Below are positions 37,699 through 55,069 of a DNA stretch of 64,000 nucleotides, in pieces. The stretch spans positions 325,937 to 389,936 of the forward strand of contig OY760505.1 of NCBI GenBank assembly GCA_963663545.1, in the 5' to 3' direction. The DNA comes from Candidatus Delongbacteria bacterium (lineage in GTDB: Bacteria > CAIWAD01). The stretch's first letter is position 1; each line of letters begins with the position of its first letter. Under the pieces are notes generated by a model. That model saw only the letters and a list, made by a program, of their open reading frames with translations, was not told where the DNA came from and did not search any database. The translations under genes and the position numbers were made by a program.

Positions 37699-37977
37699 GA
37701 CTTCGGAGTCGCAATCGGAAGGAAGAGAATCACTCTCGCCAAGCACGCGAAGCACGCAAAGAAGAAAGTGACGGTTCAAGAGCGCTGTATGAGAGTAGGA
37801 GCTAGCTGAAATGCGATTGCTCAAAACTCGCCAAGAAAAGGATGGTTGAGCGGTTTCGGTCAGTAACAAAGCAACCTTCACCCAGTAACCAGGGGCGTAA
37901 CAAAACCCCCGACGGCACACGGTGCCATCGGGGGCAAGAATCGTTCTCTCAAGAACCAAGGGGACAAAACCCAAGGG

Positions 37978-39192
37978 TCAAAACACCGTGCGGGCGGCGC
38001 GGAAACCCACGCTGCCGGACGTGTACGTCGGGTAGTTGTCGATGTGGGGCGCACACCGAACGTACGCGGCATCGTTGTACCAGCCGCCACCCCGAAGCAC
38101 ACGGGTGGAGCCGCCTGTAATTCCGTATGGGTCAGATTGAGTGGAGCTGCTGTAGCTCCCATACCAATCACCGCACCACTCCCAGACATTGCCCGCCAGG
38201 TCGTAGAAACCACGACCCGTCGCAGGATAACTGCCCACAGGGGTGGACCAGCCCACACAGTAGTTGTAGTTCAACCGCTCGCAGGTCGGCAACTCACTAC
38301 CCCAGGGGTACTCTCTCTCATCGTCCCACTGGGCGGCGTACTCCCACTCCGCCTCCGTGGGTAGGCGGTAGCCCTGGGCGAGATAGGGATCATGGCTGGC
38401 GCTTTGATTCCAGTTGCCCTGGTAGAATGCTGGCAGACCTTCCATCAGACTGCGCCAGTCGCAGTAGCAGGCGGCACCGCACCAGCTGACTTCGATCGCC
38501 GGGTGATCGGCCGGGTCGTAGCCGTCCGGGTAGGCAAAGCCGGGTCCCCAGGTGCCATTGTTGTACGTACGCGCCACCAGGTAGAACTGCTGGGTGCCCG
38601 TGTTAAAGGCGATCTCGCAGTAGTTGGTGTCATCCAGATCGAACAGCTCTACCCCGTAGGCCTGCACGCTGCTGCTGCTGGCGCTCACCAGGCCCTGGCC
38701 GAGCGCCCACTGCAGGGCGTCCATGTACTCCGCGTTGGTCACTTCGTGGGCGTCTAGGTAGAAGTCGTGGGTCAGGTGTACCGTGTGTTCGGGTGTGATT
38801 ACACCAGCCTGCCCCATCATGAAGCTGCCGGCGGGAACGAGCACCATGTCCTCCGGAGCCATTGCTTCCGCATCAACACGCACCACCGCATTCTCGTGAT
38901 ACACACTGCCCAGCCAGGCCTGCAGGTTGATGCTGGCGAAGTGTTCTCCGACGAGCATCTCGCCGAAGTCGCCCCCAAGGTACGGGTCGGGAACGGCCGT
39001 GAAGCTCACGCCTCCGTCCAGGGAGAGCAGCAGGCTGATGTTCGCGTCCTGGTCCGCCAGCCGGTAGTGCACCTGCAGCCAGCCGGGCGTGTTGCTGTCC
39101 TGGTAAAAACTTACCTCAGACACCGTCTGCGCCGCCACGAAACCTGCCAGCAGCAGCGTCCACAGCAGGGCGATCATTGTACTCCTGTTCAT
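37978..39192 (-). CDS. Secreted FGE-sulfatase (SUMF1/DUF323) domain protein, type A (conserved ~100-aa N-terminal beta domain)
   Basis: Signal peptide MNRSTMIALLWTLLLAGFVAAQ. FGE motifs HPAIEVSWCGAACYCDWRS, YRLPTEAEWEYAA, YDLAGNVWEWCGDWY, RVLRGGGWYN, GFRAARTVF. Confidence 0.75.
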   Translation of the reverse strand: MNRSTMIALLWTLLLAGFVAAQTVSEVSFYQDSNTPGWLQVHYRLADQDANISLLLSLDGGVSFTAVPDPYLGGDFGEMLVGEHFASINLQAWLGSVYHENAVVRVDAEAMAPEDMVLVPAGSFMMGQAGVITPEHTVHLTHDFYLDAHEVTNAEYMDALQWALGQGLVSASSSSVQAYGVELFDLDDTNYCEIAFNTGTQQFYLVARTYNNGTWGPGFAYPDGYDPADHPAIEVSWCGAACYCDWRSLMEGLPAFYQGNWNQSASHDPYLAQGYRLPTEAEWEYAAQWDDEREYPWGSELPTCERLNYNYCVGWSTPVGSYPATGRGFYDLAGNVWEWCGDWYGSYSSSTQSDPYGITGGSTRVLRGGGWYNDAAYVRCAPHIDNYPTYTSGSVGFRAARTVF

Positions 39193-39201
39193 CTTCCCCC
39201 C

Positions 39202-39876
39202 CTACTTCAGCAAAGTGATTTTGTGCTGGGCGACACAATCACCCGCCTGCAGACGTACGATGTAGATGCCGCTGGCCAGCGCGCTTCCGATAAAGAGCGC
39301 CTGGTGCTCGCCGCTGTTCTGCAGGCCGTGATACAAGTCCGCCACCCTCTGTCCACGCAGGTTGTAAACGCAAAGGGAAGTCTCCTCCGTCTGCGCCAGC
39401 ACATAGTGGATCACCGTGCCGGGGTTGAAGGGATTGGGGTGTGCGCCCAGCAGCGCAAAACTGGCTGGCTGCTCATCGGCGGAAGCAACGGCCTCTTCGA
39501 TCACCTCGAACTCCGTCGACCAGAGCTCGCCTACATTGCCGCAGGCGTCCTGTACGTGAAAGTGAAACTGGTAGAAGCCCAGCTCCAGCTCGCAGGGCCA
39601 GTCGAAGTTGGCGCCGTAGCCCAGGGTCGTGTGCATGGGAACGCTGAGGCCAGCGCCCTCGGCAGTAATCGTGACCAGCGGCGCTTGCGCGCTCTGATCC
39701 GTCACACTGTATTCGACATAGATATCGGTGCCTTGGACGATCTGCGCGTCCAGCACGCTGTCCAGCGAAACCTGCGGCGCGACGGTGTCAATGACGCCGG
39801 GTGCGCTGTCGGCATAGCTGGCAAAAAGGGACGGGCAAGCGAGAAGGCTCGCCAGCACCAGAGTGCGGTAGTACAT
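39202..39876 (-). CDS. Small secreted Ig-like protein with T9SS sorting domain (FGE partner, 224 aa)
   Basis: MYYRTLVLASLLACPSLFA signal peptide, ~120-aa beta-sandwich, C-terminal ...GIYIVRLQAGDCVAQHKITLLK. 10-nt gap to the downstream FGE gene. Confidence 0.7.
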   Translation of the reverse strand: MYYRTLVLASLLACPSLFASYADSAPGVIDTVAPQVSLDSVLDAQIVQGTDIYVEYSVTDQSAQAPLVTITAEGAGLSVPMHTTLGYGANFDWPCELELGFYQFHFHVQDACGNVGELWSTEFEVIEEAVASADEQPASFALLGAHPNPFNPGTVIHYVLAQTEETSLCVYNLRGQRVADLYHGLQNSGEHQALFIGSALASGIYIVRLQAGDCVAQHKITLLK

Positions 39877-40217
39877 ACTCTCTCCTCGAACCTGGGGTGA
39901 ATCCCTGGCACACGGTGTTGTGCAGTGCTTTGTTGCTCCTGGGAATGGATGATTCTGCTATAACTGTCCGAGCAAGCCGTATGCCAACGGAGCATTATCG
40001 TTTACGGGCGCTAAGTGTTTGTTCCTTGCTTTAATATTTCCTGGGTGTGTGGGCGTGGAGCGCGCGCTGGTGCCGGATCTGGTACAATCTCCCCGACAGT
40101 CCAGACACAACAGCGCAGCTGTAGCCGATGCCCGGGCAACCATCGCAGCTCCCACAGAGCGCAACGGCAAAGGCTCGGCCAGAAGTTGTTGCTTCCATCA
40201 GGCGTGCGCGACTGCCG

Positions 40218-40250
40218 GACAGAGGCAAGCGGCCCGTCGGCTGACGGGTC
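40218..40250 (-). terminator. Conserved hairpin element 3' of FGE gene (gcggcccgtcgg-ctga-cgggtcgc + T-run on + strand)
   Basis: Inverted repeat ~45 nt after the stop of 40294..41532; paralogous copies at 42525 and 44842. Confidence 0.45.
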
Positions 40251-40293
40251 GCTTGATTTTTCTTGCGGGCCATGCCCGGCATGTGATACAAGA

Positions 40294-41532
40294 TCAGGGA
40301 TTGGCGGTACGGCAGACGCGGAAGCCCACGTGGCCGCTCGTGCGCGACGGGGAGTAGTGGCCGTCGCGATACGCACACCGGACGTACTCGGCAGCGTGGT
40401 TCCAGCTGCCACCCCGAATCACGCGGTAGGAGCTGCTCGATATTCCGTATGGATTCGACTGTGCCGAACTGCTATAGTTGCCATACCAATCACCGCACCA
40501 CTCCCCGACATTGCCCGCCAGGTCATAAAACCCGCGGCCAGATGGCGGATAGCTGCCTACGGGCGAGGTCCAGCCCACGCAGTAGCTGCTGCCGTTGTAG
40601 TAGTTCAGCAACGCGCAGTCGGGTGGTTCATTACCCCAGGGATAGCTGCGTTCGTCGTTCCACTGTGCCGCGTACTCCCACTCGGCCTCCGTGGGCAGGC
40701 GATAGCCCTGCGCCGTGTATGGATCATGGCTGGCCGACTGATTCCAGTTGCCCTGGTAGAATGCCGGCAGACCCTCCATCAAACTGCGCCAGTCGCAATA
40801 GCAGGCTGCCCCGTACCAGCTCACTTCCTTCACCGGGTGATCGGCCGGGTCATAGCCGCCGGGGTAGGCAAAGCCAGGACCCGAGAAGCCGCTGGTGTAC
40901 GAGCGTGCCACCAGATAGAACTGCTGGGTATTGGTGTTGAAGCCGATCTCGCAAAAGCTCGTGGCATACAGGTCAAGCAGCTCTACCCCGTAGGCCTGCA
41001 CGCTGCTGCTGGTTACGCTAACCAGCCCCTGGTTGAACGCCCACTGCATCGCGGCCAGATACTCGGCGTTGGTCACTTCATGGGTATCCAGGTAAAAATC
41101 TTGCGTCAGCGTGACTGTGTGTTCGGGTGTGGCCACATCAGAATCAGACTCGCCCATCACGAAGCTTCCGGCGGGAACGAGGATCATGCTCACCAGAGCC
41201 GCCGCTTCCGCATCAACACGCACCACCGCATTCTCGTGATACACGCTGCCCAGCCAGGCCTGCAGGTTGATGCTGGCGAAGTGTTCGCCGACGAGCATCT
41301 CGCCGAAGTCGCCCCCGAGGTACTGGTCGGGAACGGCCGTGAAGCTCACGCCGCCGTCCAGGGAGAGCAGCAGGCTGATATTCGCATCCTGCTCTGCCAG
41401 CGTGTAATGCACCGTCACTAGCCCGCTGCCGTCCTGCGCCTGAGCAAAGCTCACATCTGACACCGTTTGCGCCGCAGCAAAGCCTGCCAGCAATAGCGTC
41501 CACAGCAGGGCGATCATTGTATTTCGATTCAT
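40294..41532 (-). CDS. Secreted FGE-sulfatase domain protein, type A
   Basis: MNRNTMIALLWTLLLAGFAAAQ; HPVKEVSWYGAACYCDWRS, YRLPTEAEWEYAAQW, YDLAGNVGEWCGDWYG, RGGSWNHAAEYVRCAYR, GFRVCRTANP. Confidence 0.75.
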   Translation of the reverse strand: MNRNTMIALLWTLLLAGFAAAQTVSDVSFAQAQDGSGLVTVHYTLAEQDANISLLLSLDGGVSFTAVPDQYLGGDFGEMLVGEHFASINLQAWLGSVYHENAVVRVDAEAAALVSMILVPAGSFVMGESDSDVATPEHTVTLTQDFYLDTHEVTNAEYLAAMQWAFNQGLVSVTSSSVQAYGVELLDLYATSFCEIGFNTNTQQFYLVARSYTSGFSGPGFAYPGGYDPADHPVKEVSWYGAACYCDWRSLMEGLPAFYQGNWNQSASHDPYTAQGYRLPTEAEWEYAAQWNDERSYPWGNEPPDCALLNYYNGSSYCVGWTSPVGSYPPSGRGFYDLAGNVGEWCGDWYGNYSSSAQSNPYGISSSSYRVIRGGSWNHAAEYVRCAYRDGHYSPSRTSGHVGFRVCRTANP

Positions 41533-41541
41533 GCTTTCCCC

Positions 41542-42216
41542 CTACTTCAGCAAAGTGATTTTCTGCTGGGCCACGCGCTCGCCCGCCTGCAGACGTACGA
41601 TGTAGATGCCGCTGGCCAGCGCGCTGCCGTCAAAGAGCGCCTGGTGCTCGCCGCTGTCCTGCAGGCCGTGGTACAATTCCGCCACACGCTGACCGCGCAG
41701 GTTGTAGACCTCGAGCGAAGCCTCGGCGGTCTGCGCCAGTGCGTAGCGAATCACCGTGCCGGGGTTGAAGGGGTTGGGATGCGCGCCCAACAGCGCAAAG
41801 CTGGCCGGCTGCTCATCGGCGGAAGCAACGGCCTCTTCGATCACCTCGAACTCCGTCGACCAGAGCTCGCCTACATTGCCGCAGGCGTCCTGTACGTGAA
41901 AGTGAAACTGGTAGATGCCCAGCTCTAGCTCACAGGGCCAGTTGAAGTTGGCGCCGTAGCCCAGGGTTGTGTGCATGGGAACGCTGAGGCCAGCGCCCTC
42001 GGCTGTAATTGTGACCAGCGGCGCTTGCGCGCTCTGGTCTGTCACGCTGTACTCAACGTAGACGTCGGTGCCGTAGACGATCTGCGCGTCCAGCACGCTG
42101 TCCAGCGAAACCTGTGGCGCAACGGTGTCAATGACGCCGGGTGCGCTGTCGGCATAGCTGGCAAAAAGGGACGGGCAGGCGAGAAGGCTCGCCAGCACCA
42201 AAGTGCGGTAGTACAT
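41542..42216 (-). CDS. Small secreted Ig-like protein with T9SS sorting domain (FGE partner)
   Basis: Start set at MYYRTLVLASLLACPSLFA. ~93% nt identity to 39202..39876. Ends ...RVAQQKITLLK. Confidence 0.7.
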   Translation of the reverse strand: MYYRTLVLASLLACPSLFASYADSAPGVIDTVAPQVSLDSVLDAQIVYGTDVYVEYSVTDQSAQAPLVTITAEGAGLSVPMHTTLGYGANFNWPCELELGIYQFHFHVQDACGNVGELWSTEFEVIEEAVASADEQPASFALLGAHPNPFNPGTVIRYALAQTAEASLEVYNLRGQRVAELYHGLQDSGEHQALFDGSALASGIYIVRLQAGERVAQQKITLLK

Positions 42217-42524
42217 ACTCTCTCCTCGAATCCGTGCGAATCCCTCACAGTGGCGCTGCGGCAGGATTCTGTGTTTGCTGAAAACGAAATCTGATTTTGC
42301 TGCTACGCTTGATTGCAAGCTTCATACCAATTCCTGCAATGCGTGCCGGAATTGGCAACTGTTATAATTCCAAGTAGATGCTTCGCTAATTCGGTGTTGC
42401 AGAAATGCAAGTGTGCCGGATACGCGACAGAAGTACAGAACAGCGCGAACACTATTACGCCTGCGGCGGGAATGGGACACGGCTTTGGAGGGTGGACCGA
42501 TTCAGGTGCCTTGTCTGTGCACAC

Positions 42525-42555
42525 AAAGAAAGCGACCCGCCGACTAACGGGTCGC
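42525..42555 (-). terminator. Bidirectional hairpin terminator (gcgacccg-ccgactaa-cgggtcgc; T-runs on both strands)
   Basis: Perfect 8-bp stem ~45 nt downstream of the stop of 42597..43817. Minus strand continues with tttctttgtgt, plus strand with ttgattttcc. Confidence 0.55.
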
Positions 42556-42596
42556 TTGATTTTCCTTGCGGGCCATGCCCGGCATGTGATACAAGA

Positions 42597-43817
42597 TCAG
42601 GGATTGGCCGTACGGCAGACGCGGAAGCCCACTTGGTAGCTCATTCCATTCGGGCTGTTGCCATTGCGGTACGCACACCGGACGTACGTGGCAGAGCTGC
42701 TCCAGGCTCCACCTCGACGCACGCGAGCATTAATGCCATCAATTCCGTATGGATTGGATTGAGGGGAGCTGCTGTAGCTTCCAAACCAATCTCCGCACCA
42801 CTCATAGAGATTGCCCGCCATGTCGCAGAAGCCAAGGTCTGTAGCCGGATAACTGCCCACCGGGGTGGTCCAGGCCACACAGTTGTTGTAGTTCAACCGC
42901 TCGCAGATCGGCAAGTCATTGCCCCAGGGGTATTCTCTATTATCGTCCCACTGGGCGGCGTACTCCCACTCTGCCTCCGTGGGTAGGCGGTAGCCCAGGG
43001 CCAGATAAGGATCATGGCTCAGGTCTTGATTCCAGTTGCCCTGGTAGAAGGCGGGTAGGCCATCCATCAGGCTGCGCCAGTCGCAATAGCAGGCGGCGCC
43101 GAACCAGCTGACTTCCTTCACCGGGTGATTAGCCGGGTCGTAGCCGTCGGGATAGGCAACGCCGGGCCCCCATAAGCCACCGCTCGTGCGCGCAACCAGA
43201 TAGAACTGCTGGATGCTGGCATCGAAGGCAATCTCGCAGTAGTCGGTAGCGTTCAGGTCCAGCAGCTGCTTACCATAGGCCTGCACGCTGCTGCTGCTGG
43301 CGGTCACCAGGCCCTGGTTGTACGCCCACTGCAGCGCGGCCAGGTACTCGGCATTGGTCACCTCGCAGCGTCCCAGGTAGAAGTCGTTCGTTAGTGTGAC
43401 CTGATGCTCAGGTGATGAAAAATATATGCCCTCCTGCCCCATCATGTAGCTGCCGGCGGGAACGAGGATCATGCTCACCAGAGCCGCCGCTTCCGCATCA
43501 ACACGCACCACCGCATTCTCGTGATACACGCTGCCCAGCCAGGCCTGCAGGTTGATGCTGGCGAAGTGTTCTCCGACGAGCATCTCGCCGAAGTCGCCCC
43601 CAAGGTACTGGTCGGGAACGGCCGTGAAGCTCACGCCTCCGTCCAGGGAGAGCAGCAGGCTGATGTTCGCGTCCTGGTCCGCCAGCCGGTAGTGCACCTG
43701 TAGCCAGCCGGGTGTGGTACTGTCCTGATAAAAGCCCACTTCCGACACGGTTTGCGCCATCGTGACACACGCCATCAGCAGTCCGAGCAGCAGGGCGATG
43801 CAGGTAGTCTTCTTCAT
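42597..43817 (-). CDS. Secreted FGE-sulfatase domain protein, type A
   Basis: MKKTTCIALLLGLLMACVTMAQ; HPVKEVSWFGAACYCDWRS, YRLPTEAEWEYAAQW, CDMAGNLYEWCGDWFG, GFRVCRTANP. Confidence 0.75.
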   Translation of the reverse strand: MKKTTCIALLLGLLMACVTMAQTVSEVGFYQDSTTPGWLQVHYRLADQDANISLLLSLDGGVSFTAVPDQYLGGDFGEMLVGEHFASINLQAWLGSVYHENAVVRVDAEAAALVSMILVPAGSYMMGQEGIYFSSPEHQVTLTNDFYLGRCEVTNAEYLAALQWAYNQGLVTASSSSVQAYGKQLLDLNATDYCEIAFDASIQQFYLVARTSGGLWGPGVAYPDGYDPANHPVKEVSWFGAACYCDWRSLMDGLPAFYQGNWNQDLSHDPYLALGYRLPTEAEWEYAAQWDDNREYPWGNDLPICERLNYNNCVAWTTPVGSYPATDLGFCDMAGNLYEWCGDWFGSYSSSPQSNPYGIDGINARVRRGGAWSSSATYVRCAYRNGNSPNGMSYQVGFRVCRTANP

Positions 43818-43830
43818 TTCTCTTCCCCCC

Positions 43831-44505
43831 CTACTTCAGCAAAGTGATTTTGTGCTGGGCCACGCGCTCGCCCGCCTGCAGCCGTACGATGTAGATGCCG
43901 CTGGCCAGCGCGCTGCCGTCGAAAAAGACCTGGTGCTCGCCGCTGTCCTGCAGGCCGTGATACAAGTCCGCCACCCGCTGTCCACGCAGGTTGTAGACGC
44001 AGAGGGAAGTCTCCTCCGTCTGCGCCAGCGCATAGTGGATTACCGTGCCTGGGTTGAAGGGGTTGGGATGTGCTCCCAACAGCGCAAAACTGGCTGGCTG
44101 CTCATCGGCGGAAGCAACGGCCTCTTCGATCACCTCGAACTCTGTCGACCACGTGTCACAGAAGTTGCCGCAGGCGTCCTGTACGTGAAAGTGAAACTGG
44201 TAAATGCCTAGCTCCAGCTCGCAGGGCCAGTTGAAGTTGGCGCCGTAGCCCAGGGTTGTGTGCATGGGAACGCTGAGGCCAGCGCCCTCGGCAGTAATTG
44301 TGACCAGCGGCGCTTGCGCGCTCTGATCCGTCACGCTGTACTCAACGTAGACGTCGGTGCCTTGGACGAGCTGCGCGTCCAGCACGCTGTCCAGCGAAAC
44401 CTGCGGTGCGACGGTGTCAATGACGCCGGGTGCGCTGTCGGCATAGCTGGCAAAAAGGGACGGGCAGGCGAGAAGGCAAGCAAGCATCAACGTGCGAACA
44501 GTCAT
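43831..44505 (-). CDS. Small secreted Ig-like protein with T9SS sorting domain (FGE partner)
   Basis: Start set at MTVRTLMLACLLACPSLFA. Near-identical to the other partner genes. Ends ...RVAQHKITLLK. Confidence 0.7.
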   Translation of the reverse strand: MTVRTLMLACLLACPSLFASYADSAPGVIDTVAPQVSLDSVLDAQLVQGTDVYVEYSVTDQSAQAPLVTITAEGAGLSVPMHTTLGYGANFNWPCELELGIYQFHFHVQDACGNFCDTWSTEFEVIEEAVASADEQPASFALLGAHPNPFNPGTVIHYALAQTEETSLCVYNLRGQRVADLYHGLQDSGEHQVFFDGSALASGIYIVRLQAGERVAQHKITLLK

Positions 44506-44841
44506 GATCACTCCTCGATTCCGCACAGTCTTACACCTAGCTGTAGGCTGCGGTGAATGCTGTTGTAGGTTATAGATCGATTTTGCTGAAGCGCAGAGCG
44601 CAAATGATGTGCCATTTTCGTCACACACCTTCGCGTTTGAACAATTGTTCAAATTTCAAGCAGATAGCAACCAGAGAATTGAGGAAGAAAAGGCCTCGTG
44701 TGCCGGATTTTCTACAGAATTAGGCTCAGACTGAACAATATTTCGCGAACCTTTCCATTGCTTGGTGGATATCGAGCCAGAATGCCGAAGCTCCATCCAT
44801 GTACGCACAACGGGCACTTCTACTCGTGCACAGAGCAAGGC

Positions 44842-45000
44842 GACCCGCCAGCTGACGGGTCGCAGAAGGTTCGAATTCCAAAACATGAAGGCAGCCAACT
44901 GTATCCGGTCACGGCTGGAAGCCCCTCCCTCAGGCTTAGCCAGTCGCAATAACAGGCGGCGCCGTGCCAGCGGACTTCCTTCACCGGGTGAGAGGTGCTT
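44842..45000 (-). pseudogene. Relic of an FGE-domain gene 3' part plus its conserved downstream hairpin (deletion remnant)
   Basis: ...GSTSHPVKEVRWHGAACYCDWLSLREGLPA... fragment with no N-terminus or start. The hairpin gcgacccgccagctgacgggtcgc is retained. Confidence 0.55.
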
Positions 45001-45081
45001 CCAGAGCGCGGGTGAGCCCCGAAGCCAACAGCAGAAGCAGAGCAAACAGTGTTGTGAGCTTCCTCATGGTCTCCTCTCAAG

Positions 45082-46284
45082 TCAGGGGTTGACAGTTCGG
45101 GCGGCGCGAAAACCCACTCCGCTGCTCGCGTACAAGGGGTCGCTGTTGCGTCGATGCGCACACTGGACGTTTGTGTCATCGCCGGTCCAGCAGCCACCCC
45201 GAATCACTCGAGAGGGGCTACCAGCAATTCCGTATGGATTGGTTTGGTTTGAGCTGCTATAGCTGCCATACCCATCACCGCACCACTCCCGGATGTTCCC
45301 CGCGAGATCTGAAAAACCACGTCCCGTCAGCGGATAGTTGCCAACCGGGGAGGTCCAGCCTATGCAGTAGCTGCCGCCGTCGTGGTAATTCAGCAATGCG
45401 CAGGTGGGGGATTCATTTCCCCAGGGGTAGCTACGTTCATCGTCCCACTGCGCCGCATATTCCCATTCAGCCTCCGTCGGCAAACGGTAGCCCTGCGCCA
45501 GATAGGGATCGTGGCTGGCGCTTTGATCCCAGTTGCCCTGATAGAACGCGGGCAAGCCCTCGCGCAGGCTACGCCAGTCGCAGTAACACGCGGCCCCGTA
45601 CCAGCTGACTTCCTTCACCGGGTGATCGGCCGGGTCGTAGCCGCCGGGGTAGGCGAATCCAGGCCCCCAGCTACCACTGTTGTATGAGCGCGCCACCAGA
45701 TAGAACTGCTGTGTACTCGTGTTGAATGCGATCTCGCAGTAGTTAGTGGCATCCAGATTGAGCAGCTCCACACCGTAGGCCTGTACGCTGCTGCTGTCAG
45801 CAGTCACCAGGTCCTGCCCTAGAGCCCACTGCAAGGCTTCCATGTACTGCTGGTTGGTCACCTCATGTGCGTCCAGGTAGAAGTCGTAGGTCAGGTGTAC
45901 CGTGTGCTCCGGCGTGGCCACACCAGCCTGTCCCATCGTGAAGCTACCGGCGGGTACGAACACCATGTCGCCTAACTCGCCGATAGCTACAACATTGAAG
46001 CTGCCGAATCGAGACGGCTGAAACAGCGAGTCCCACCCCGTAGGCAGGGCGAATTGGCAGCTAGTTGTATCGGTCCAGGCCAGCAGCGAGTCGGGGCCCG
46101 TCCACTGGGTTCTCCCCCGAACCTGATAGGAGACCGCCCCTGCTACGGAAATCCAGTCCAGCCTGACGCAAGTAGTGTCGCCGTCACACGCGGCAGTGAT
46201 GGAGACCTGCGGAGCGTCCAGCGCAAAAACAGCCACCAGCGGGATCAGCCACACAGCAGCCATGACAAGCACATTCCTCATCAT
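45082..46284 (-). CDS. Secreted FGE-sulfatase domain protein, type B (FN3-like N-terminal domain)
   Basis: Start set at MMRNVLVMAAVWLIPLVAVFA. HPVKEVSWYGAACYCDWRS, YRLPTEAEWEYAAQW, GFRAARTVNP. Confidence 0.7.
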   Translation of the reverse strand: MMRNVLVMAAVWLIPLVAVFALDAPQVSITAACDGDTTCVRLDWISVAGAVSYQVRGRTQWTGPDSLLAWTDTTSCQFALPTGWDSLFQPSRFGSFNVVAIGELGDMVFVPAGSFTMGQAGVATPEHTVHLTYDFYLDAHEVTNQQYMEALQWALGQDLVTADSSSVQAYGVELLNLDATNYCEIAFNTSTQQFYLVARSYNSGSWGPGFAYPGGYDPADHPVKEVSWYGAACYCDWRSLREGLPAFYQGNWDQSASHDPYLAQGYRLPTEAEWEYAAQWDDERSYPWGNESPTCALLNYHDGGSYCIGWTSPVGNYPLTGRGFSDLAGNIREWCGDGYGSYSSSNQTNPYGIAGSPSRVIRGGCWTGDDTNVQCAHRRNSDPLYASSGVGFRAARTVNP

Positions 46285-46963
46285 TCTCTCCTGTTTCTTT
46301 CGTCGTCGTGTTTTGATCTCTGCTCGGGTTTCTGCTCTGCGCCCTACCACTCGCCAGCGATCCATCCGCCTACGGCCCTATGCGCAACGCGTGTGCGGCA
46401 TGGCAGCAGATGTACTCAGCGGGTACGGCTGTTGGTCGGCAACTCAACGTGACTGGTAATCAATGCCAGGTAGAACAGCATGGCCGTCCGCGAAAGTGTC
46501 CACGGGCGTGTCACCCCATGTACTCCCGCGACTCCCCGTCTTGCTGCAAAACGGGACGACTCTGTGATTTCGTTGCTATTTCTGGTCTTGCTGCAATACT
46601 GTTGCGCAATCGGCAGACCAGTTTGCCTCCGCTGCGTGCTTGAGCGTAATGACACTATTTTCAGTCAGATATCAGCTGCGGTCAGACCGGCTTTTCCTGT
46701 ACATGCCGGATATTCACCAAATTGGGCGTCGGCATGAACACCTAGGAGCAGCGTTCTCCAGCAATCACACTTTCAGTCTGGTTGCTCATGGGACAAGCAA
46801 CCCGTCAGCTAGCAAGTCGAAGTGGGAACTCTATCGTACCAGGCAGCGAGGCTGTCCGCCGTGACACACGCTCACTCGCGTCCTGTCTACCCTGGACATC
46901 TTCAATACGCGAGAGTTGGCGCAGCAAACTCCAACGGACCGGCGATTGTGTCACGCGGTAACA

Positions 46964-48103
46964 CTAATCGACGGTACGCACGCAGCGAAAACCGCAGTCG
47001 CTGTACGCGCTCGTAGGCGTTTCGTTGTCGCGGTACGCACAGCGGGCGTAGCTGGCATTGTCGTTCCAATCTCCCCCGCGCAGCGCACGAGCCGTGCCGC
47101 TCGCATTTCCGTATGGATTAGTCTGAGTCGAGCTGCTGTAGTCCCCATACCAATCGCCGCACCACTCCCAGACATTGCCCGCCAGATCGTAAAACCCACG
47201 TCCCGTCGCCGGATAACTGCCCACCGGGGTGGTCCAACCCACACAGTTGTTGTAGTTCTGCCGTTCGCAGGAAGGGGATTCATTGCCCCAGGGGTAGCTA
47301 CGCTCATCGTCCCATTGCGCGGCGTACTCCCACTCCGCTTCCGTCGGTAGACGATAGCCCTGTGCCATGTAGGGATCGTGGCTCGCGTCAATATTCCAGT
47401 TGCCCTGGTAGAAGGCGGGCAAGCCTTCCCTCAGGCTGCGCCAATCGCAGTAACACGCGGCTCCGTACCAAGTGACCTCGATCACCGGGTGTTGCTCGCT
47501 CCCCGCATCCACGCTGAACTGGGACCCGGAGTAGGAGATCTCGCAATCAATATCATCCAGGTCCAGCAGCTCCAGTCCGTAAGCCTGCACGCTGCTGCTG
47601 CTGGCAGTGACCAATCCCTGGTCGTACGCCCACTGCAGGGCCTCTACGTATTCCTGGTTGCTCACCTCGTACTGTCCCAGGTAGAAGTCGTGGCTCAGGG
47701 TCACGGTGTGTTCCGGCTCGGCCACGCCCACCTGTCCCATGACGAACTCACCGGCAGGCACGAGCACCAGCGGCATCTCCTCCACCGTCGTCACCGCGCG
47801 CACGGAAAAGAGCCGCGCCACGTTGGGGCGTACGCGACCGACCTGCAGCATGGGCACGCGCAGACTGTACTCGCAGTTGGTGGTCGTGGTCAGCAGCGAG
47901 TCCGTCTGCCAGGCGGCGTTGCGCGGGTCGCGGTGGTAGAGCTCGTAATACTCAGCGCCGCTGACGCTGGGCCAGGAAAGCTGCACCTGCACGCAATCCA
48001 GATCCGGGTTGTACTGGGTGCTCAGGCTGAGCTGGGGCGTCTCCAGAGCGTGCGCGAGCCCGGCGGTCAGCAGCAGGGCAAACAAGGTGATACGTCGCAG
48101 CAT
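46964..48103 (-). CDS. Secreted FGE-sulfatase domain protein, type B
   Basis: MLRRITLFALLLTAGLAHA. HPVIEVTWYGAACYCDWRS, YRLPTEAEWEYAAQW, YDLAGNVWEWCGDWYG, GFRCVRTVD. Confidence 0.7.
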   Translation of the reverse strand: MLRRITLFALLLTAGLAHALETPQLSLSTQYNPDLDCVQVQLSWPSVSGAEYYELYHRDPRNAAWQTDSLLTTTTNCEYSLRVPMLQVGRVRPNVARLFSVRAVTTVEEMPLVLVPAGEFVMGQVGVAEPEHTVTLSHDFYLGQYEVSNQEYVEALQWAYDQGLVTASSSSVQAYGLELLDLDDIDCEISYSGSQFSVDAGSEQHPVIEVTWYGAACYCDWRSLREGLPAFYQGNWNIDASHDPYMAQGYRLPTEAEWEYAAQWDDERSYPWGNESPSCERQNYNNCVGWTTPVGSYPATGRGFYDLAGNVWEWCGDWYGDYSSSTQTNPYGNASGTARALRGGDWNDNASYARCAYRDNETPTSAYSDCGFRCVRTVD

Positions 48104-48120
48104 GATGGATCCTTTTGAGT

Positions 48121-49326
48121 TCAGGGGTTGGCGGTGCGACAGACGCGGAAGCCCATGCGGCTGAACGCGACCGACGGGGCAGCGAAATGGCGACTTGCGC
48201 AGAGCAGGTACGACGCGTTGTTACCCCAGCTGCTGTCCCGGCTCACACGGAGGGAGCCGCTTGGGGGCCCCGTCGGATTGCTCACGCTATCGCTGCTGTA
48301 GCTGCCAAACCAATCGCCGCACCATTCGGAGACATTACCGCCCAGGTCGTAGAAACCAAGGCCCGTCGCTGGATAGCCGCCTACCGGAGTAGTCCACCCC
48401 ACGCAGAAGCTACTGCCGAGAAAGCAGTTCACCACCTCACAACTGGGGGACTGATCGCCCCAAGGGTAAGTACGCTCGTCGTTGAACTGGGCCGCATACT
48501 CCCACTCAGCCTCTGTGGGCAGACGGTAGCCCTGAGCCAGATAGGGATCGTGGCTGGCGCTTTGATTCCAGTTGCCCTGGTAGAAAGCTGGCAAGCCCTC
48601 CCTCATACTGCGCCAGTCGCAGTAGCAAGCGGCCCCGTACCAGCTGACGTCCTTCACCGGGTGATGGGCAGGGTCGTAGCCCTCGGGGTAGGCAAAACCT
48701 GGGCCGAAGGTGCCAGTGTTGGTGGTGCGTGGTACTAGAGTGAACTGTTGAAGGCTTGAGTCGAAGGCAATCTCGCAGGACTCGACATCACCAATGGCGA
48801 GCAGCCCCGCGCCATCAGCCTCGACTCTCGTGTCGGTCACCGTTACCAGGCCCTGATCGTAGGCCCACTGCAGGGCCTCCATGTACTCCTGGTTGGTCAC
48901 CTCGTAGCGTCCCAAGTAAAAGTCTTGCGTCAGGGTCGCCGTGTGTTCCGGCTCGGACACGCCCACCTGCCCCATGAGGAAGCTGCCCGCAGGTACGAGC
49001 ACCAGCGGGGACAGCACCGCCCGCACGGAAAAAAGCCGCGCCACGTTGGGGCGCACGCGGCCGATCTGAATCATGGGCACGCGCAGGCTATACGCGCAGT
49101 TGGTGGTCGTGGTCAGCAGCGAGTCCGTCTGCCAGGCAGCGTTGCGCGGGTCGCGGTAGTAGACTTCGTAAACCTCGGCGCCGCTGACGCTGGGCCAGGA
49201 AAGCTGCACCTGCACACAATCCAGTTCAGGGTTGTACTGGGTGCTCAGGCTGAGCTGGGGTGCTTCCAGCGCGTGCGCGAGCCCGGCGGCCAGCAGCAGG
49301 GCAAACATTGTGATGCGGTGCGTCAT
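48121..49326 (-). CDS. Secreted FGE-sulfatase domain protein, type B
   Basis: Start set at MTHRITMFALLLAAGLAHA (the upstream 50-aa extension is rejected). HPVKDVSWYGAACYCDWRS, YRLPTEAEWEYAAQF, GFRVCRTANP. Confidence 0.7.
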   Translation of the reverse strand: MTHRITMFALLLAAGLAHALEAPQLSLSTQYNPELDCVQVQLSWPSVSGAEVYEVYYRDPRNAAWQTDSLLTTTTNCAYSLRVPMIQIGRVRPNVARLFSVRAVLSPLVLVPAGSFLMGQVGVSEPEHTATLTQDFYLGRYEVTNQEYMEALQWAYDQGLVTVTDTRVEADGAGLLAIGDVESCEIAFDSSLQQFTLVPRTTNTGTFGPGFAYPEGYDPAHHPVKDVSWYGAACYCDWRSMREGLPAFYQGNWNQSASHDPYLAQGYRLPTEAEWEYAAQFNDERTYPWGDQSPSCEVVNCFLGSSFCVGWTTPVGGYPATGLGFYDLGGNVSEWCGDWFGSYSSDSVSNPTGPPSGSLRVSRDSSWGNNASYLLCASRHFAAPSVAFSRMGFRVCRTANP

Positions 49327-49648
49327 GGTGGATCCTTGGCCGTGGAACACCTCTGGACACGAGTGAGCGCGCCACGTAGCTACCACCGCGCGCTGGCAAT
49401 CGGACGATGTCGTGCGTGCAGGTGCATTCGTGGATTCTGCTCCATTTTTCTTGTTGTGCTGCAAGCTTCGCACCAAAGCTGCAACGAGCGCGGCCTTGCT
49501 CGTATGTTCTATAATTTCAATTCATGTCACTTCAGCCTGGAACCTGTCTGCCCGCCGGATTCTCGACATAGATAACAGGAATAGAACAGTATGAATCCAA
49601 CGCAGACATCGGCAGCCTGGGGCGCGAGACGCGGGGTCCCTTCCCCTC

Positions 49649-49737
49649 CCAATCGGTATCCGACTCGCCCCGAGTCGGCGGGATCGCTATCGGTATCGGT
49701 ATCGTTCCCCCTTCCCCCCCCAATCGGTATCATTCTT
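49649..49737. repeat. Palindromic repeat element (CCCAATCGGTATCCGACTCgccccGAGTCGGcgggATCGCTATCGGTATCGGTATCG + partial second copy)
   Basis: Same GATACCGAT/CCGACTC...GAGTCGG architecture as the copies at 4238, 37588, 59708, 61720. Confidence 0.65.
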
Positions 49738-49909
49738 CCTTCTCCTGTTCCTTCGCGTAGATTCCAGCAACAAGCAGGTTTCCGAATCCGACTCCGAAAT
49801 CGACCTGCCCCCGTGACGAGCTGGGTCGGCACCGATCGAGATGAGGAAGTGGATGAGACCACGCATCCCGTGATCTTGAGAGCGAGCCCTGTTCGCTTCG
49901 ATCCTCCCG

Positions 49910-51154
49910 CTACGGGGCCACCGTCCGACAGATACGGAAGCCGAGGTCCTCGCTCGCGTTCCCTGGCAGGGCATTGTAGCGAAAAGCGCAACTCACCGTA
50001 CCTGCATGGGAGTACGACGAATGGCATCCTCCGCGAGCCACCCGTGCACCCCCCTGACTTGGGCCTGCGGGGTTGATCGCGTAGTTCGCATTGGGATAGG
50101 CGGCAAACCAGTCATTGCACCACTCCCAGACGTTGCCTGCTAAATCATGCAAGCCCAGCGCCGCGTCGCCGGCGGGATAGCTGCCTACGGGCGCAGTCCA
50201 GCGCGCGCAGTTACCGTAGTTTGCCTGCAGGCAAGGTGTGGGTACTGTGTCACCCCATGGATAGAGTCGCCTATCGTTGTATTGCGCTGCGTATTCCCAT
50301 TCGGCCTCCGTCGGCAGGCGGTACCCTTCGGCAGCGTATGGATTACCGGGGTCCGGTATTTGTGACCATTGGCCATTGTAATAGGGAGTGAGTCCCTCCA
50401 ACTGACTGCGCCAGTCGCAATAGCAGGCAGCACCGTACCAGGTCACGTGCATGACGGGGTGCGTGGCAGGATCGTACCCGTTCGGATAAGCCGCCCCCGG
50501 ACCTCGGCCCTGCGCGCTGAAAGTACCCTCATGAAGGACAAACTGCGGGGAATCGTAGCGGATCTCGCAATTATCCACCCCTGTGTACCATACCAAAAGG
50601 ATCTGCCCATACTGCACAACCCTCCCACCACTGGCATTTGGTATCACCAGCCCCTGCTCCAGCGCCCACTGCAAAGCCTCCAGGTATTCCTCGTTGGTCA
50701 CTTCGCTACGCCCCAGATAGAAGTATTCCGTCAAGTACACGGCGTGCACGGGCTCGGCCACACCGGTACGCCCCATGACAAAATAGGCGGCCGGCGGCAT
50801 CAGCACCATGCCCTCGGGAGCCGTGTGTTCTGCCAACACGCGCACCACGGCATTCGTGCAGTACAGACTGCCCAGCCAGGCTTGTATGTTGATGGCAGCG
50901 GAGCCATTCCCCGCAGCCACCTCGCCCACATCGCCGCTGGTGTACTCTGCTGGTACGAGCGTGAAAGAGCTTCCGCCATCCAGCGAGAGCTCAAGGCTGA
51001 CGTTGGCGTTCAAATCCGGCATCCAGTAGTGCACTTGTAGCCAGCCGGGTGCATTTGCATCCTGGGAGAAGCTCACGGACATCACGGTCTGCGCGGCGGC
51101 AATCCCCGCCAGCTGGAGCGTCCATAGCAGAGCGATCGCGGTAGTTCGGTTCAT
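49910..51154 (-). CDS. Secreted FGE-sulfatase domain protein, type A (most divergent member; retains two Cys near C-terminus)
   Basis: MNRTTAIALLWTLQLAGIAAAQ; HPVMHVTWYGAACYCDWRS, YRLPTEAEWEYAAQY, HDLAGNVWEWCNDWF, GFRICRTVAP. Confidence 0.7.
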   Translation of the reverse strand: MNRTTAIALLWTLQLAGIAAAQTVMSVSFSQDANAPGWLQVHYWMPDLNANVSLELSLDGGSSFTLVPAEYTSGDVGEVAAGNGSAAINIQAWLGSLYCTNAVVRVLAEHTAPEGMVLMPPAAYFVMGRTGVAEPVHAVYLTEYFYLGRSEVTNEEYLEALQWALEQGLVIPNASGGRVVQYGQILLVWYTGVDNCEIRYDSPQFVLHEGTFSAQGRGPGAAYPNGYDPATHPVMHVTWYGAACYCDWRSQLEGLTPYYNGQWSQIPDPGNPYAAEGYRLPTEAEWEYAAQYNDRRLYPWGDTVPTPCLQANYGNCARWTAPVGSYPAGDAALGLHDLAGNVWEWCNDWFAAYPNANYAINPAGPSQGGARVARGGCHSSYSHAGTVSCAFRYNALPGNASEDLGFRICRTVAP

Positions 51155-51163
51155 GCTTCCCCC

Positions 51164-51838
51164 CTACTTCAGCAAGGTGATTTTGTGCTGGGCGACGCAA
51201 TCACCCGCTTGCAGACGCACAATGTAGATGCCGCTGGCCAGCGCGCTTCCGTCAAAGAGCGCCTGGTGCTCGCCGCTGTCCTGCAGGCCGTGAACCAAAT
51301 CCGCTACCCGCTGACCGCGCAGGTTGTAGACGCAGAGAGAAGCCTCCTCAGTCTGCGCCAGCGAATAGTAGATCACCGTGCCGGGATTGAAAGGGTTTGG
51401 ATGTGCGCCTGAAAGGGCAAAGCTGGCCGGTTGGTAGTCCGCAGAGGCAACGTCCTCTCCGATGACTTCGAACTCCGTCGACCAGAGCTCGCCTGCATTG
51501 CCGCAGGCGTCCTGTACGTGGAAGTGAAACTGGTAGATACCCAGCTCCAGCTCACAGGGCCAGTTGAAGTTGGCGCCGTAGCCCATGGTTGTGTGCACGG
51601 GAACGCTGAGGCCAGCGCCCTCGGCAGTAATCGTGACCAGCGGCGCCTGAGCGCTCTGATCTGACACGCTGTACTCGACGTACACCTGTGTGCCAACCAC
51701 GATCTGCGCGTCCAGCACGCTGACCATCGTAATCTGTGGCGCGACGGTGTCAATGACGCCGGGCGCGCTGTCGGCGTAACTGGCAAACAGTGCCGGACAA
51801 GCAAACAGGGCCGTCAGCACGAAAGTGCGGCAGTGCAT
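51164..51838 (-). CDS. Small secreted Ig-like protein with T9SS sorting domain (FGE partner)
   Basis: MHCRTFVLTALFACPALFA; ...GIYIVRLQAGDCVAQHKITLLK. Confidence 0.7.
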   Translation of the reverse strand: MHCRTFVLTALFACPALFASYADSAPGVIDTVAPQITMVSVLDAQIVVGTQVYVEYSVSDQSAQAPLVTITAEGAGLSVPVHTTMGYGANFNWPCELELGIYQFHFHVQDACGNAGELWSTEFEVIGEDVASADYQPASFALSGAHPNPFNPGTVIYYSLAQTEEASLCVYNLRGQRVADLVHGLQDSGEHQALFDGSALASGIYIVRLQAGDCVAQHKITLLK

Positions 51839-52094
51839 ACTCTCTCCTCAAATGCGGATGTCCTCCTGCGAGGCCTGCTGCGGGAAGATCAATTGCTTGC
51901 TGATGATGGAATCGGATTCTGCCGCGCACAGCACATGCAAGCTTCGTACCAAAACAGCCCAGGAGATAAGACAACCCTTAATCTCTATCTAAACAAGCAG
52001 TTCCAATGAATAGTACCGGGTGTTCACTCCGAGCCAGCAAGCACATATGTCGGATTTATAACAAGATTCTCGGCAGACTGAACAAGGCTGCAGG

Positions 52095-53316
52095 CTACTC
52101 GGCCGCTTTAGCACACGGAAGCCCAGATAGTCCTTTGCGTAGGGTGGAGAATAGCTGACCCGATAGGCGCATTTCACGTAGGACGCAGTGGCCTTCCCAG
52201 GTACCACCCCGGAAGAAGCGGGCAGAGCCGGTGCTTGCACCGAGGGGGTCGGACGCGGCACTCGAGGGATAAACCCCATAACAGTCGCCACACCACTCAG
52301 CGATGTTACCCGCTATATCATGCAAGCCCAAGGTGCTGCCCCCACAGGATAGCTGCCCACGGGTGCTGTCCAGCCCACACACCTGGCCATGTCTGCATGG
52401 ACGCACTCCACGGGTAAGTCATTGCCCCATGGATAGGTACGTTCGTTCTCTTACCGCACCGCGTACTCCCACTCCGCTTCTGTTGGCAGTCGGTAGCCAT
52501 CGGCCAGGTAGGGGTTGTGGCTGGTTGTCTGATCCCAGACTCCATAATAGAAGGGCGACAAGCCTTCTCTTTGGCTGCGCCAATCGCAGTAGCAGGCGGA
52601 ACCGTACCAAGTGACATACTTCGCAGGATGTGATGCGGGATCATAACCTTCTGGATAGGCTGCCCCTGGGCCGGAGATCCCATTGACGTAGGTTCCTGCT
52701 TGTAGGAAAAACAGCTGCGAGCTGCTATTGAATTGAATCTCGCACCGATCAGCAGCAGTTCATCGATGCCCAGCAGGTCCTGTCCGTACTGGCACACGTA
52801 CTCCCCATCTTCAGAAATCGTCAACAATCCCTGAACCCAGGCCCATTGCACAGCTGCCAGGTACTCCTGATTGCTCACCTCATACTGGCCAATCAGGAAG
52901 TCATGGGTCAGGGTCACTTAGTGTTCCGGCGGAGCCACGCCATTCTGCCCCATCATGCAGCCGCCAGCAGGGATGAGAACCATGGCTGCTTCATCGATCG
53001 CCGCTCGCACGTGGAAGGTGCGCGCCAGGTTCGAGCGCACACGGCCAGGCTGGCGCCAGCGCAGGTGCAATTCAAAGCCACAGTCCGTGATTGTAGCCAG
53101 CAGGAAATCCTCCACCCAGGTAGAACTACGCGGATTGCGGTAGTAGACTTGATACTGCGTGGCACCAGTGACGCAGGGCCACTGAAGCTGGACAAGCGCG
53201 CTATCCGTCCCCTCGATGCACTGCGCAGCAACACTTATCTGCGGAGCTTCCAGAGCACAGGCGACTCCTGCTGTCAGCAGCAGGAGCACCCCAACCAGTT
53301 GCTTCAAGCGTGTCAT
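52095..53316 (-). pseudogene. FGE-sulfatase domain pseudogene (copy of 53483..54715 with nonsense mutation and frameshifts)
   Basis: Split into three ORFs (52918..53316, 52318..52917, 52095..52406). In-frame TAA at ~52918 where the intact paralog has CAG. Remaining sequence ~85-90% identical to the neighbour. Confidence 0.7.
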
Positions 53317-53482
53317 TTCCAGCTCTTCGTTTGTTGCCCCCTCGTGTTGCCAGCAGTCCGGTCAAAGGGTTCCAAAGACCTATCGATCACTGACTTCTTG
53401 ACGCCAGGTGCTGTTCTCCCAGCAGTGGCCAATCGCGGCTCACGCTATTCCCAAGGCAGAAGTTCAGGGTGCGCGCACTCGA

Positions 53483-54715
53483 TCATGGCGTGGCCAGCCG
53501 GCAGATACGAAAGCCATGGCGGGGGTGCCAACTTGACGGGCCTTGAGCTTCGCGATAGGCACAGCGCAAGTAGAAGGTGCTGCAGAGCCAGTCCCCGCCT
53601 CGCACCAAGCGATTGAGGCCAGCATCCGAACCGCAAGGATCCACTTGGGCGTCGCTGCTATAGACAGCAAACCGGTCGTTGCACCACTCCCCCACATTGC
53701 CCGCCATGTCCAGCAAACCCAAAGCGTTCGCACCTGTCGGGTAGCTGCCCACGGGTGTCGTCCACCCCACACAATAGCCATTTAGACGAAAGTTCGCCCC
53801 ACTAAGATCCGGTGTATCCTCGCCCCAAGGGTAAGTACGTTCGTCACTGTATTGCGCCGCATATTCCCATTCTGCTTCCGTCGGCAGGCGATAACCTAGG
53901 GCCAAGTATGGATTGTGACCGGCAGACTGATCCCAGACTCCACTGTAGAAAGGTGTTAATCCCACCATTTGGCTGCGCCAGTCGCAGTAGCAGGCGGCGC
54001 CGTACCAGGTGACTGACTTCACAGGATGCGGTGCCGGATCGTAGCCTCCAGGATAGGCTGCCCCCGGCCCATAGATATCATCTGCGTAGGTCCCTGCATA
54101 AAGGAAAAACAACTGTGTGTCGACGTCGAATCGAATTTCGCACCAGTCAGAAATGTCATCGTTGATGTTCAGGAGGTTCTGGCCGTACTGACATACAAAG
54201 TTCCCATACGCGGAGATCGTCAACAACCCCCGATCCCAGGCCCACTGTAAAGCTTCCAAGTACTCCTGGTTGGTCACCTCGTACTGGCCCAAGTAGAAGT
54301 TGTGGGTCAAGGTTACCTGGTGCTCGGGTGTGGATACGCCGTTCTGGCCCATGACGAACTGCCCGGCGGGAACAAGAACCATGGCTGCTTCATCGATCGC
54401 CGCTCGCACGTTGAAGGTGCGCGCCAAGCTCGGGCGCACACGGCCAAGCTGGCGCCAGCGCAGGCGCAATTCATAGTCACAGTCCGTGGTCGTAGCCAGC
54501 AGAGAATCCTCCACCCAAGTAGAACTACGCGGATTGCGGTAGTAAACTTGATACTGCGTGGCACCGCTGACGCAGGGCCACTGAAGCTGGACAAGCACGC
54601 TGTCCGTCCCCTCGATGCACTGCGCAGTAACACTTACCTGCGGAGCTTCCAGAGCACAGGCAACTCCTGCAGTCAGCAGCAGGATCACCCCGACCAGTTG
54701 CTTCAAGCATGTCAT
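53483..54715 (-). CDS. Secreted FGE-sulfatase domain protein, type B
   Basis: Start set at MTCLKQLVGVILLLTAGVACA. HPVKSVTWYGAACYCDWRS, YRLPTEAEWEYAAQY, LDMAGNVGEWCNDRF, GFRICRLATP. Confidence 0.7.
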   Translation of the reverse strand: MTCLKQLVGVILLLTAGVACALEAPQVSVTAQCIEGTDSVLVQLQWPCVSGATQYQVYYRNPRSSTWVEDSLLATTTDCDYELRLRWRQLGRVRPSLARTFNVRAAIDEAAMVLVPAGQFVMGQNGVSTPEHQVTLTHNFYLGQYEVTNQEYLEALQWAWDRGLLTISAYGNFVCQYGQNLLNINDDISDWCEIRFDVDTQLFFLYAGTYADDIYGPGAAYPGGYDPAPHPVKSVTWYGAACYCDWRSQMVGLTPFYSGVWDQSAGHNPYLALGYRLPTEAEWEYAAQYSDERTYPWGEDTPDLSGANFRLNGYCVGWTTPVGSYPTGANALGLLDMAGNVGEWCNDRFAVYSSDAQVDPCGSDAGLNRLVRGGDWLCSTFYLRCAYREAQGPSSWHPRHGFRICRLATP

Positions 54716-55069
54716 ATCCAGTCCTTTGTTTGTTGACCTCTCGTGTTGCCGGGCGCTTGGAGCCACAGAAAGTGAACACGCCCTCTCCTGCAATGAAAAA
54801 TGATTCAGCAGTTTTTATGCCAGTTCTGACGCAGGGGAATTGAAGTAATCACTTTAAATAACAACAGCTTGTTACGAAGTGAATTGATCCAAATCTGGAA
54901 AAGTGTTCAATCCGCCTGAAACAGAACAAGTATTCTGTTTGGTAGCCCCCAAAGCCAGCTGACCGCAGCGTGGCACGCGGGGCACGTGTGCTTGTAAAGC
55001 ATGTGCATTGAACGCTACCCTATCTGTAGAAAGCTGCAGATGGCGCGGAATCTGTGCTGGCTGGCGTAA

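Follow-up and report, generated by a model that had tools for sequence, protein, structure and literature searches.

Organization of the array

Between positions 37978 and 54793 of a 64,000 nt stretch of the Candidatus Delongbacteria bacterium genome (assembly GCA_963663545.1, contig OY760505.1, positions 325,937 to 389,936; hereafter the window), the minus strand carries a tandem array of eight intact genes, each with a full-length match (E about 1e-45 to 1e-53) to PF03781, the FGE-sulfatase domain present in the formylglycine-generating enzyme (FGE). They are accompanied by one pseudogene and one relic, according to PF03781 and tblastn searches. An earlier interpretation of the same DNA, made from the sequence alone (the sequence-only reading), gave these numbers correctly in its text, although its title, with nine paralogs plus two pseudogenic copies, overcounted them. 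Four of the genes are each preceded by a gene for a small protein, here called the partner, that carries a sorting domain of the type IX secretion system (T9SS).

The FGE-like proteins have a Sec signal peptide and no sorting domain of their own. A lipobox-like LMAC is present in the signal peptide encoded by the gene at 42597, with no lipobox in the other seven copies. There are two N-terminal types among them, A and B, a division that had been proposed before and that is borne out by the alignment. The type-A N-domain is a confident beta-sandwich in the AlphaFold2 model (pLDDT 86-95, residues 24-110). The type-B N-domain is indeed distinct, but its previous label of FN3-like could be matched in Pfam with a sub-threshold hit to GH85_C (E 8e-4) and nothing firmer. 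The array proteins gave no match in a PADLOC scan, and in a PHROGs scan they matched a single family, labelled "kinase".

The type-A gene at 37978..39192 (404 aa; PF03781 E 2e-46) encodes, from the alignment, a signal peptide, a beta-sandwich N-domain and a head with the FGE/C-type-lectin fold, of which the most divergent part, referred to below as the tip, is encoded at 37999-38103. Its partner, partner 1 (39202..39876, 224 aa), ends 9 nt upstream of it, and has a signal peptide, an Ig-like domain and a T9SS type-A sorting domain (TIGR04183 E 2.2e-9, PF18962 and Ig-like repeat homologs). The arrangement is repeated, also on the minus strand, by the gene at 40294..41532 (412 aa; E 8e-53; tip 40318-40425) with partner 2 (41542..42216), by the gene at 42597..43817 (406 aa; E 4e-47; tip 42621-42725) with partner 3 (43831..44505), and by a divergent type-A gene at 49910..51154 (414 aa; E 1.5e-46; tip 49934-50044) with partner 4 (51164..51838; TIGR04183 E 4.4e-9). 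All of the partners are 224 aa, those numbered 2, 3 and 4 being 93%, 92% and 87% identical to partner 1, and each ends 9-13 nt upstream of its type-A gene. The two-gene unit repeated four times, as described in the sequence-only reading, is thereby confirmed, and the pair recurs in other genomes (see below).

Also on the minus strand are the type-B genes at 45082..46284 (400 aa; E 6e-45; tip 45106-45210), 46964..48103 (379 aa; E 2e-50; tip 46985-47089), 48121..49326 (401 aa; E 9e-45; tip 48145-48249) and 53483..54715 (410 aa; E 7.5e-48; tip 53507-53611), the last of these at the head of the array. The gene at 45082 has no partner, and the gene at 46964 lies 17 nt downstream of that at 48121. 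The relic (44883..45056, minus strand) retains 36-50 aa around the HPVKEVSWYGAACYCDW region, with tblastn identities of 56-75% and E down to 1e-11.

The pseudogene (52106..53316, minus strand) is of type B, with an in-frame stop at 52918-52920, a change from Q to stop, and with the frame lost near 52750. A second assembly of the same strain (L035; ENA ERZ21862665 ctg6282l), corresponding to 61831-47051 of the window, has no substitutions relative to it over 14.8 kb and 17 single-base indels, nearly all in homopolymer runs. Around the stop and the first loss of frame the two are identical; within the pseudogene they differ at three positions only, all downstream of this region (52552, 52373 and 52206) and each a single-base indel in a homopolymer. 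The possibility of an assembly artefact was therefore rejected and the pseudogene is taken as genuine. Several of the indels in the second assembly break ORFs (open reading frames), namely those of partner 4 and of the FGE-like genes at 49910 and 48121. Since these ORFs are intact in the window, the indels look like errors of the second assembly.

A terminator-like hairpin with a 14-bp stem and a T-rich tail is found after the gene at 37978 (37905..37935, minus strand). Homologous palindromic GC-rich hairpins with 12-13-bp stems and 4-nt loops are present at 40226-40255 and 42530-42557, about 40 nt past the stops of two type-A genes. These are flanked by A-rich and T-rich runs and could therefore terminate transcription in both directions; at 40226 the T tail is absent on the gene's own strand. 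The hairpins after three of the type-A genes would fit separate two-gene transcription units.

The FGE-like head

In the alignment, the equivalent of Cys341 of human FGE is absent from all eight copies and that of Cys336 from six, being kept only by the type-A gene at 49910 and the type-B gene at 53483. No copy has both of the Cu(I)-binding cysteines together. The protein encoded at 49910 keeps "CHxSY", reading "CHSSYS" against "CHRSYC" in human FGE, with Ser at the Cys341 position when aligned to the C341S mutant (2afy). The catalytic loop is three residues shorter than that of human FGE in seven of the copies. It had been claimed that most copies lack the first of the cysteines and have RCAxR in place of the catalytic motif. 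The first part stands, for the six copies without Cys336, but the conserved "RCA" cysteine is the equivalent of the "RCAAR" cysteine found past the catalytic loop of human FGE, and so is neither member of the catalytic pair, the second of which has been lost throughout.

None of the real ORFs in the window has a sulfatase signature, and there is no CxPxR motif in the array proteins, the partner included, in agreement with the earlier statement that no such substrate is encoded nearby. The array proteins are non-catalytic with regard to formylglycine generation and are not sulfatase maturases, which is what had been proposed for them as secreted proteins.

The AlphaFold2 model of the protein encoded at 40294 (pLDDT 90.9) has Foldseek matches, by target-normalised TM score, to PvdO (0.73), TvpA (0.71), human FGE (0.68-0.70; E 2e-18) and PorK (0.42). 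The GNxxEW motif, which in human FGE lies at a Ca-binding site, is conserved across the family in the alignment.

Divergence between the paralogs peaks in the last 35 or so residues of the head, from "RxxRGG" to "GFR". Amino-acid differences among the paralogs amount to 38-69% in this tip, compared with 19-49% in the remainder of the domain, here called the core. The ratio of nonsynonymous to synonymous substitutions (dN/dS) among the four closest copies is 0.84-1.9 in the tip, exceeding 1 in five of the six pairs, and 0.10-0.28 in the core. The most variable columns among 82 homologs from other genomes are the same tip columns.

The tip can be aligned without gaps to C-terminal residues of TvpA, within its 45-aa variable region. 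In TvpA the variable residues of this region are solvent-exposed and make up the ligand-binding site (PMC6328139). Indeed, the tip loops correspond both to the loops that hold the catalytic cysteines in true FGE and to the variable region of the TvpA-like proteins of diversity-generating retroelements (DGRs). S, Y, G, D and N are abundant at the hypervariable sites, with K, E, Q, M and W together making up 5% of residues, against 19% at other variable sites, a composition that would be typical of binding sites. Because the copies differ in their tip loops, each presumably has a different binding specificity.

The partner protein, relatives in other genomes and surrounding genes

The description of the partner as an Ig-like protein with a T9SS sorting domain has been upheld. 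Partners 1 and 4 (39202 and 51164) were scanned, and both exceed the cut-offs for TIGR04183 (36-37 bits; cut-off 23) and PF18962 (27.4-29.9 bits; cut-off 27); partners 2 and 3 (41542 and 43831) have the 92-93% identity to partner 1 noted above. The N-terminus is hydrophobic, as read from the sequence. In an exhaustive HMMER search the N-domain proved to be related to the repeat units of giant bacterial Ig-like (Big_7/Big_13) proteins. Word-index searches with the partner N-domains returned one match each, the distant orthologs coming from the HMMER search only. The AlphaFold2 model of the partner had a pLDDT of 46, from a shallow alignment, and was not used.

The four partners are 87-93% identical to one another, with a dN/dS of about 0.15 and a dS of 0.28-0.64, while the identity between their FGE-like neighbours goes down to 55%. 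This is clearest for partner 4, which is 87% identical to partner 1, yet is followed by an FGE-like gene (49910) that shares no more than about 55% identity with the rest of the type-A set. Along the repeat unit, nucleotide identity is 84-100% through the partner and the type-A N-domain and 43-88% in the head, where it is lowest in the tip (43-77%).

The pair is also found elsewhere. In locus L039 (NCBI GCA_020433285.1, JAGRCW010000804.1) a 224-aa ortholog of the partner (P0140), with 39% identity over its full length, lies 10 nt upstream of a gene (950-1867) that, over its first 110 or so residues, shares 42% identity with the type-A N-domain (E 3e-18). Beyond these, about 190 residues of the gene product, which is cut off at the contig edge, are not FGE-like and have no Pfam match. 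In locus L042 a full-length homolog of the partner (29% identity, E 2e-22) is 12 nt upstream of a type-A FGE-like gene. From these two gene pairs, the conserved pairing is that of the partner with the type-A N-domain and not with the FGE domain, the head being exchangeable; to judge from the gene in L039, the partner may also serve heads that are not FGE-like. The co-occurrence of partner and type-A N-domain, the constancy of the partner and the hypervariability of the tip had all been missed by the sequence-only reading, whose view of secreted, non-catalytic FGE-like proteins and of a two-gene unit is supported.

The closest relatives of the array proteins, at about 50% identity, are from metagenome-assembled genomes of Candidatus Eisenbacteria, Delongbacteria and Gemmatimonadetes. 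Of 8,000 candidates scored against one type-A protein, 5,988 were relatives at E <= 1e-10. Where named, they are "formylglycine-generating enzyme family" or "SUMF1/EgtB/PvdO family nonheme iron enzyme", names that, since the catalytic cysteines are missing, are misleading for the copies studied here.

In 14 of 23 close loci, a T9SS sorting-domain gene is directly upstream of the first FGE-like gene, against a background of 9% (naive binomial p about 1e-9, the loci not being independent). At least 11 of these 14 upstream genes belong to one family of small proteins of about 193 aa, with an N-domain unlike that of the partner in the window. In some homologs the two kinds of domain are combined in a single protein: L007 has a signal peptide, an FGE-like domain and a sorting domain in one 441-aa ORF, and P0010 has two FGE-like domains and a T9SS sorting domain. 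In others the FGE-like domain is fused to PKD, peptidase C10, Laminin_G_3 or fn3. Given these fusions and genomic contexts in the relatives, the FGE-like module would be extracellular and tied to the T9SS.

A second array is present in locus L036 (JGI 3300056626, Ga0558126_00544; 10001-20253), where eight tandem FGE-like genes share a near-invariant FN3-like N-domain and have variable tips. The gene for a sorting-domain protein lies about 850 nt upstream of the first of these. Two genes of this array, at 11288 and 19003, are divergent in their cores and no longer encode the conserved C of the xCAxR motif.

The window is rich in T9SS cargo, with at least 12 sorting domains by tblastn. At its start there are tandem gingipain-like Peptidase_C25 paralogs (22-4170 and 4488-8675, plus strand) of about 1,390 aa each, 69% identical and with an InhA-like MAM domain. 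These are followed by a tandemly duplicated two-gene unit of large T9SS cargo (9817-15340 and 15634-21142, minus strand), in which the proteins of about 875 aa are 91% identical and the beta-helix proteins of about 950 aa are 79% identical. Other sorting-domain cargo, all on the minus strand, includes a 1,304-aa protein with an InhA-like MAM domain (23282-27196), a lamin-tail-domain protein (59759-61363) and a protein rich in FG-GAP-like repeats (61797-63995).

Divergent from the array head is an N6/N4 DNA methyltransferase gene (55070-56182, plus strand; PF01555 and PADLOC type II methyltransferase models), beside which no restriction enzyme was recognised. On the other side of the array, about 28700-36978 on the minus strand, is what looks, from translations only, like a Bat/MoxR aerotolerance-type operon, with a MoxR-like ATPase (35989-36978) and DUF58-like and VWA-domain membrane proteins. 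One of the VWA proteins (31302-33149) ends in a long Q/D/E-rich low-complexity tail.

Interpretation of the array

The reading we favour, and to which we would give an even chance, is that the array is a genome-encoded repertoire of non-catalytic lectin-fold binding heads, the type-A ones displayed through a constant T9SS-exported subunit. Each protein combines a Sec signal peptide and a small constant beta-sandwich N-domain, A or B, with a non-catalytic FGE-like head. Duplication and divergence of the genes, together with patchy gene conversion, would account for the diversity of the heads, with no indication of hypermutation in place. Each of the four type-A genes is probably co-transcribed with its near-invariant partner, which would be exported by the T9SS and anchored on the cell surface. 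If the partner docks the type-A N-domain, then a constant carrier would display interchangeable variable heads on the cell surface, perhaps to a different ligand in each case.

Several points weigh against this. The FGE-like proteins have no sorting domain and could stay in the periplasm, and we know of no demonstrated co-export of a subunit lacking a sorting signal with a T9SS cargo. The type-B genes have no partner, and the type-A homologs L040 and L041 have none upstream. The small partner of the Eisenbacteria relatives carries another N-domain, and their FGE-like genes are without that of type A; because the N-domains differ on both sides, the docking model is not directly transferable to these relatives. 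As for the tips, dS is near saturation for many pairs, and their divergence could in part reflect relaxed constraint on a former active site.

The closest known system is that of TvpA of Treponema denticola and the FGE-type C-type-lectin-fold variable proteins of DGRs, the "category b" targets of Wu et al. 2018. Both they and the array proteins are secreted or surface proteins in multi-copy families without the FGE Cys pair, in which variability is confined to the C-terminal 35-45 or so residues, which align without gaps and have a binding-site-like composition. Unlike TvpA-type systems, the array has neither a reverse transcriptase nor a template repeat in the window or in the related loci searched. 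Its tips have ordinary synonymous divergence, its diversity is spread over paralogs instead of being made in one gene, and its proteins are coupled to constant N-domains and a T9SS-exported partner.

With FGE itself (SUMF1; human 1Y1E, Streptomyces coelicolor 2Q17) the array proteins share PF03781, the overall fold and the "RCAxR" cysteine. They differ from it in the shorter catalytic loop of seven copies, the incomplete Cys pair, the additional N-terminal beta-sandwich domains and the lack of sulfatase substrates nearby. In Flavobacterium, T9SS cargo genes with a type-B sorting domain occur with a PorP/SprF-like accessory gene. There, as here, a dedicated second gene comes directly after the T9SS cargo gene and the two are present together in several copies, but in the array the sorting domain is of type A (TIGR04183) and the second gene encodes a soluble FGE-like protein and not an outer-membrane beta-barrel.

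PorK/GldK and GldJ, the FGE-fold lipoproteins of the T9SS and gliding machinery, resemble the array proteins in having a non-catalytic FGE-like fold in a T9SS organism. It is conceivable, though unlikely, that the FGE-like proteins are distant functional analogues of these, acting as periplasmic accessory or chaperone-like factors for the neighbouring T9SS cargo. GldK/PorK is the top NCBIfam match, and PorK is the top full-length sequence match among solved structures. A Sec signal peptide without a sorting domain, and the tight linkage to sorting-domain genes in many genomes, would be in keeping with such a role.

The scores against TIGR03525 (PorK/GldK), at 75-112 bits, are nevertheless far from the equivalog cut-off of 350 and cover only the C-terminal half, and the structural similarity to PorK is below that to FGE, TvpA and PvdO. 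A lipobox is missing from seven of eight copies. Not being lipoproteins, and occurring in many hypervariable copies, the array proteins contrast with PorK/GldK, which is single-copy and conserved. There are no porL/M/N (gldL/M/N) genes among the neighbours, which are the paralogs, the partners, the DNA methyltransferase and the Bat/MoxR-like operon. A hypervariable, binding-site-like surface would be unexpected if the bound cargo were constant. Close homologs are themselves T9SS cargo, as in the L007 and P0010 fusions, and there are many heads for each sorting-domain gene in the case of the type-B copies and the L036 array. The analogy with GldK/PorK that had been drawn from the sequence alone is, in view of these results, weak.

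It is also improbable that the array is a set of remote targets of a DGR, with a reverse transcriptase and a template repeat at some other place on the 3.72-Mb genome contig (3,721,866 bp) and with adenine-specific mutagenic retrohoming as the means by which the tips are rewritten. The largest class of DGR targets is that of lectin domains of the FGE-sulfatase type with a variable region at the C-terminus, and both remote targets and eight-gene tandem target arrays are on record (PMC5758913). The alignment of the tip with the variable region of TvpA is as would be expected of such targets, and GC-rich hairpins follow three of the genes. Among hypervariable codons 76% are NNY, compared with 59% in the core (p = 6.5e-5), and the residues depleted at hypervariable sites, K, E, Q, M and W, are ones that cannot be reached from AAC codons.

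However, no long ORF of the window has a reverse-transcriptase motif, and no template-repeat-like extra copy of the tip was found in it by blastn. There are no adenine-biased repeat pairs in the window or in loci L001-L034. Nor was a reverse transcriptase seen in those loci, or in the genes called for L036 and L042. With amino-acid composition taken into account, the NNY excess is lost (67% and 56%, p = 0.07). Synonymous differences at conserved codons are as frequent in the tips (19-82%) as over the remainder of the gene (25-66%), none of the pairs reaching significance, which indicates that no single template has overwritten the tips since the divergence of the copies. At the 3' end of the tip the copies do not share a sequence, and the stretch without substitutions in the second assembly includes three of the tips. 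With the template, reverse-transcriptase, adenine-bias, synonymous and NNY tests, which covered the window and related loci, all negative or not significant, active targeting by a DGR was judged unlikely.

Similarly doubtful is the idea that these are enzymes of the wider SUMF1/EgtB/PvdO superfamily, acting on small molecules or on the partner, with the tip setting substrate specificity. The similarity to the FGE-like domains of ToxD, PvdO, CalU17 and EgtB type is comparable to that with FGE, and the GNxxEW motif has been retained throughout the family, both of which would be consistent with an enzyme. All of the NCBIfam enzyme models, though, score far below their cut-offs: 47-60 against 360 for EgtB, 46-58 against 420 for SenA, 33-62 against 500 for PvdO and 26-40 against 400 for OvoA. 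Neither a DinB or other metal-binding partner domain nor biosynthetic genes are present nearby, the partner has no CxPxR motif, and conservation along the protein is lowest in the loops equivalent to the active site. An ordinary expansion of FGEs that mature sulfatases, for which the strong PF03781 matches might be cited, can be dismissed, given the incomplete Cu-binding cysteine pair in every copy, the real ORFs of the window without a sulfatase signature and the array proteins without CxPxR.

The elements of the favoured reading, a repertoire of binding heads displayed through a constant subunit, are in part already known, as there are FGE-fold variable binding proteins in DGR systems and FGE-fold proteins in the T9SS. 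No account was found in the literature that combines a paralog array without a nearby DGR, a design of constant module and variable head, and a conserved pairing with a small T9SS cargo, so that the earlier description of this as "not a described system" stands. Literature searches on FGE-sulfatase with T9SS, and on Eisenbacteria with T9SS, returned nothing relevant.

In its most specific form, which we put forward only tentatively, the model is one of modular T9SS display. A constant sorting-domain cargo would carry and anchor proteins that have no sorting domain and that dock via a beta-sandwich N-domain, "hitch-hiking" on it, with the interchangeable hypervariable heads forming a hard-wired repertoire. 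To our knowledge, no mechanism of carrier-mediated export or display has been established for the T9SS. If modular display is true, then paralogs would here take the part that hypermutation plays in DGR systems. The fold and binding site that are hypermutated there would, if the model holds, also be diversifiable through paralog arrays alone, and the array would provide a concrete case in which to probe the T9SS export and display of a protein without a sorting domain through a dedicated carrier subunit.

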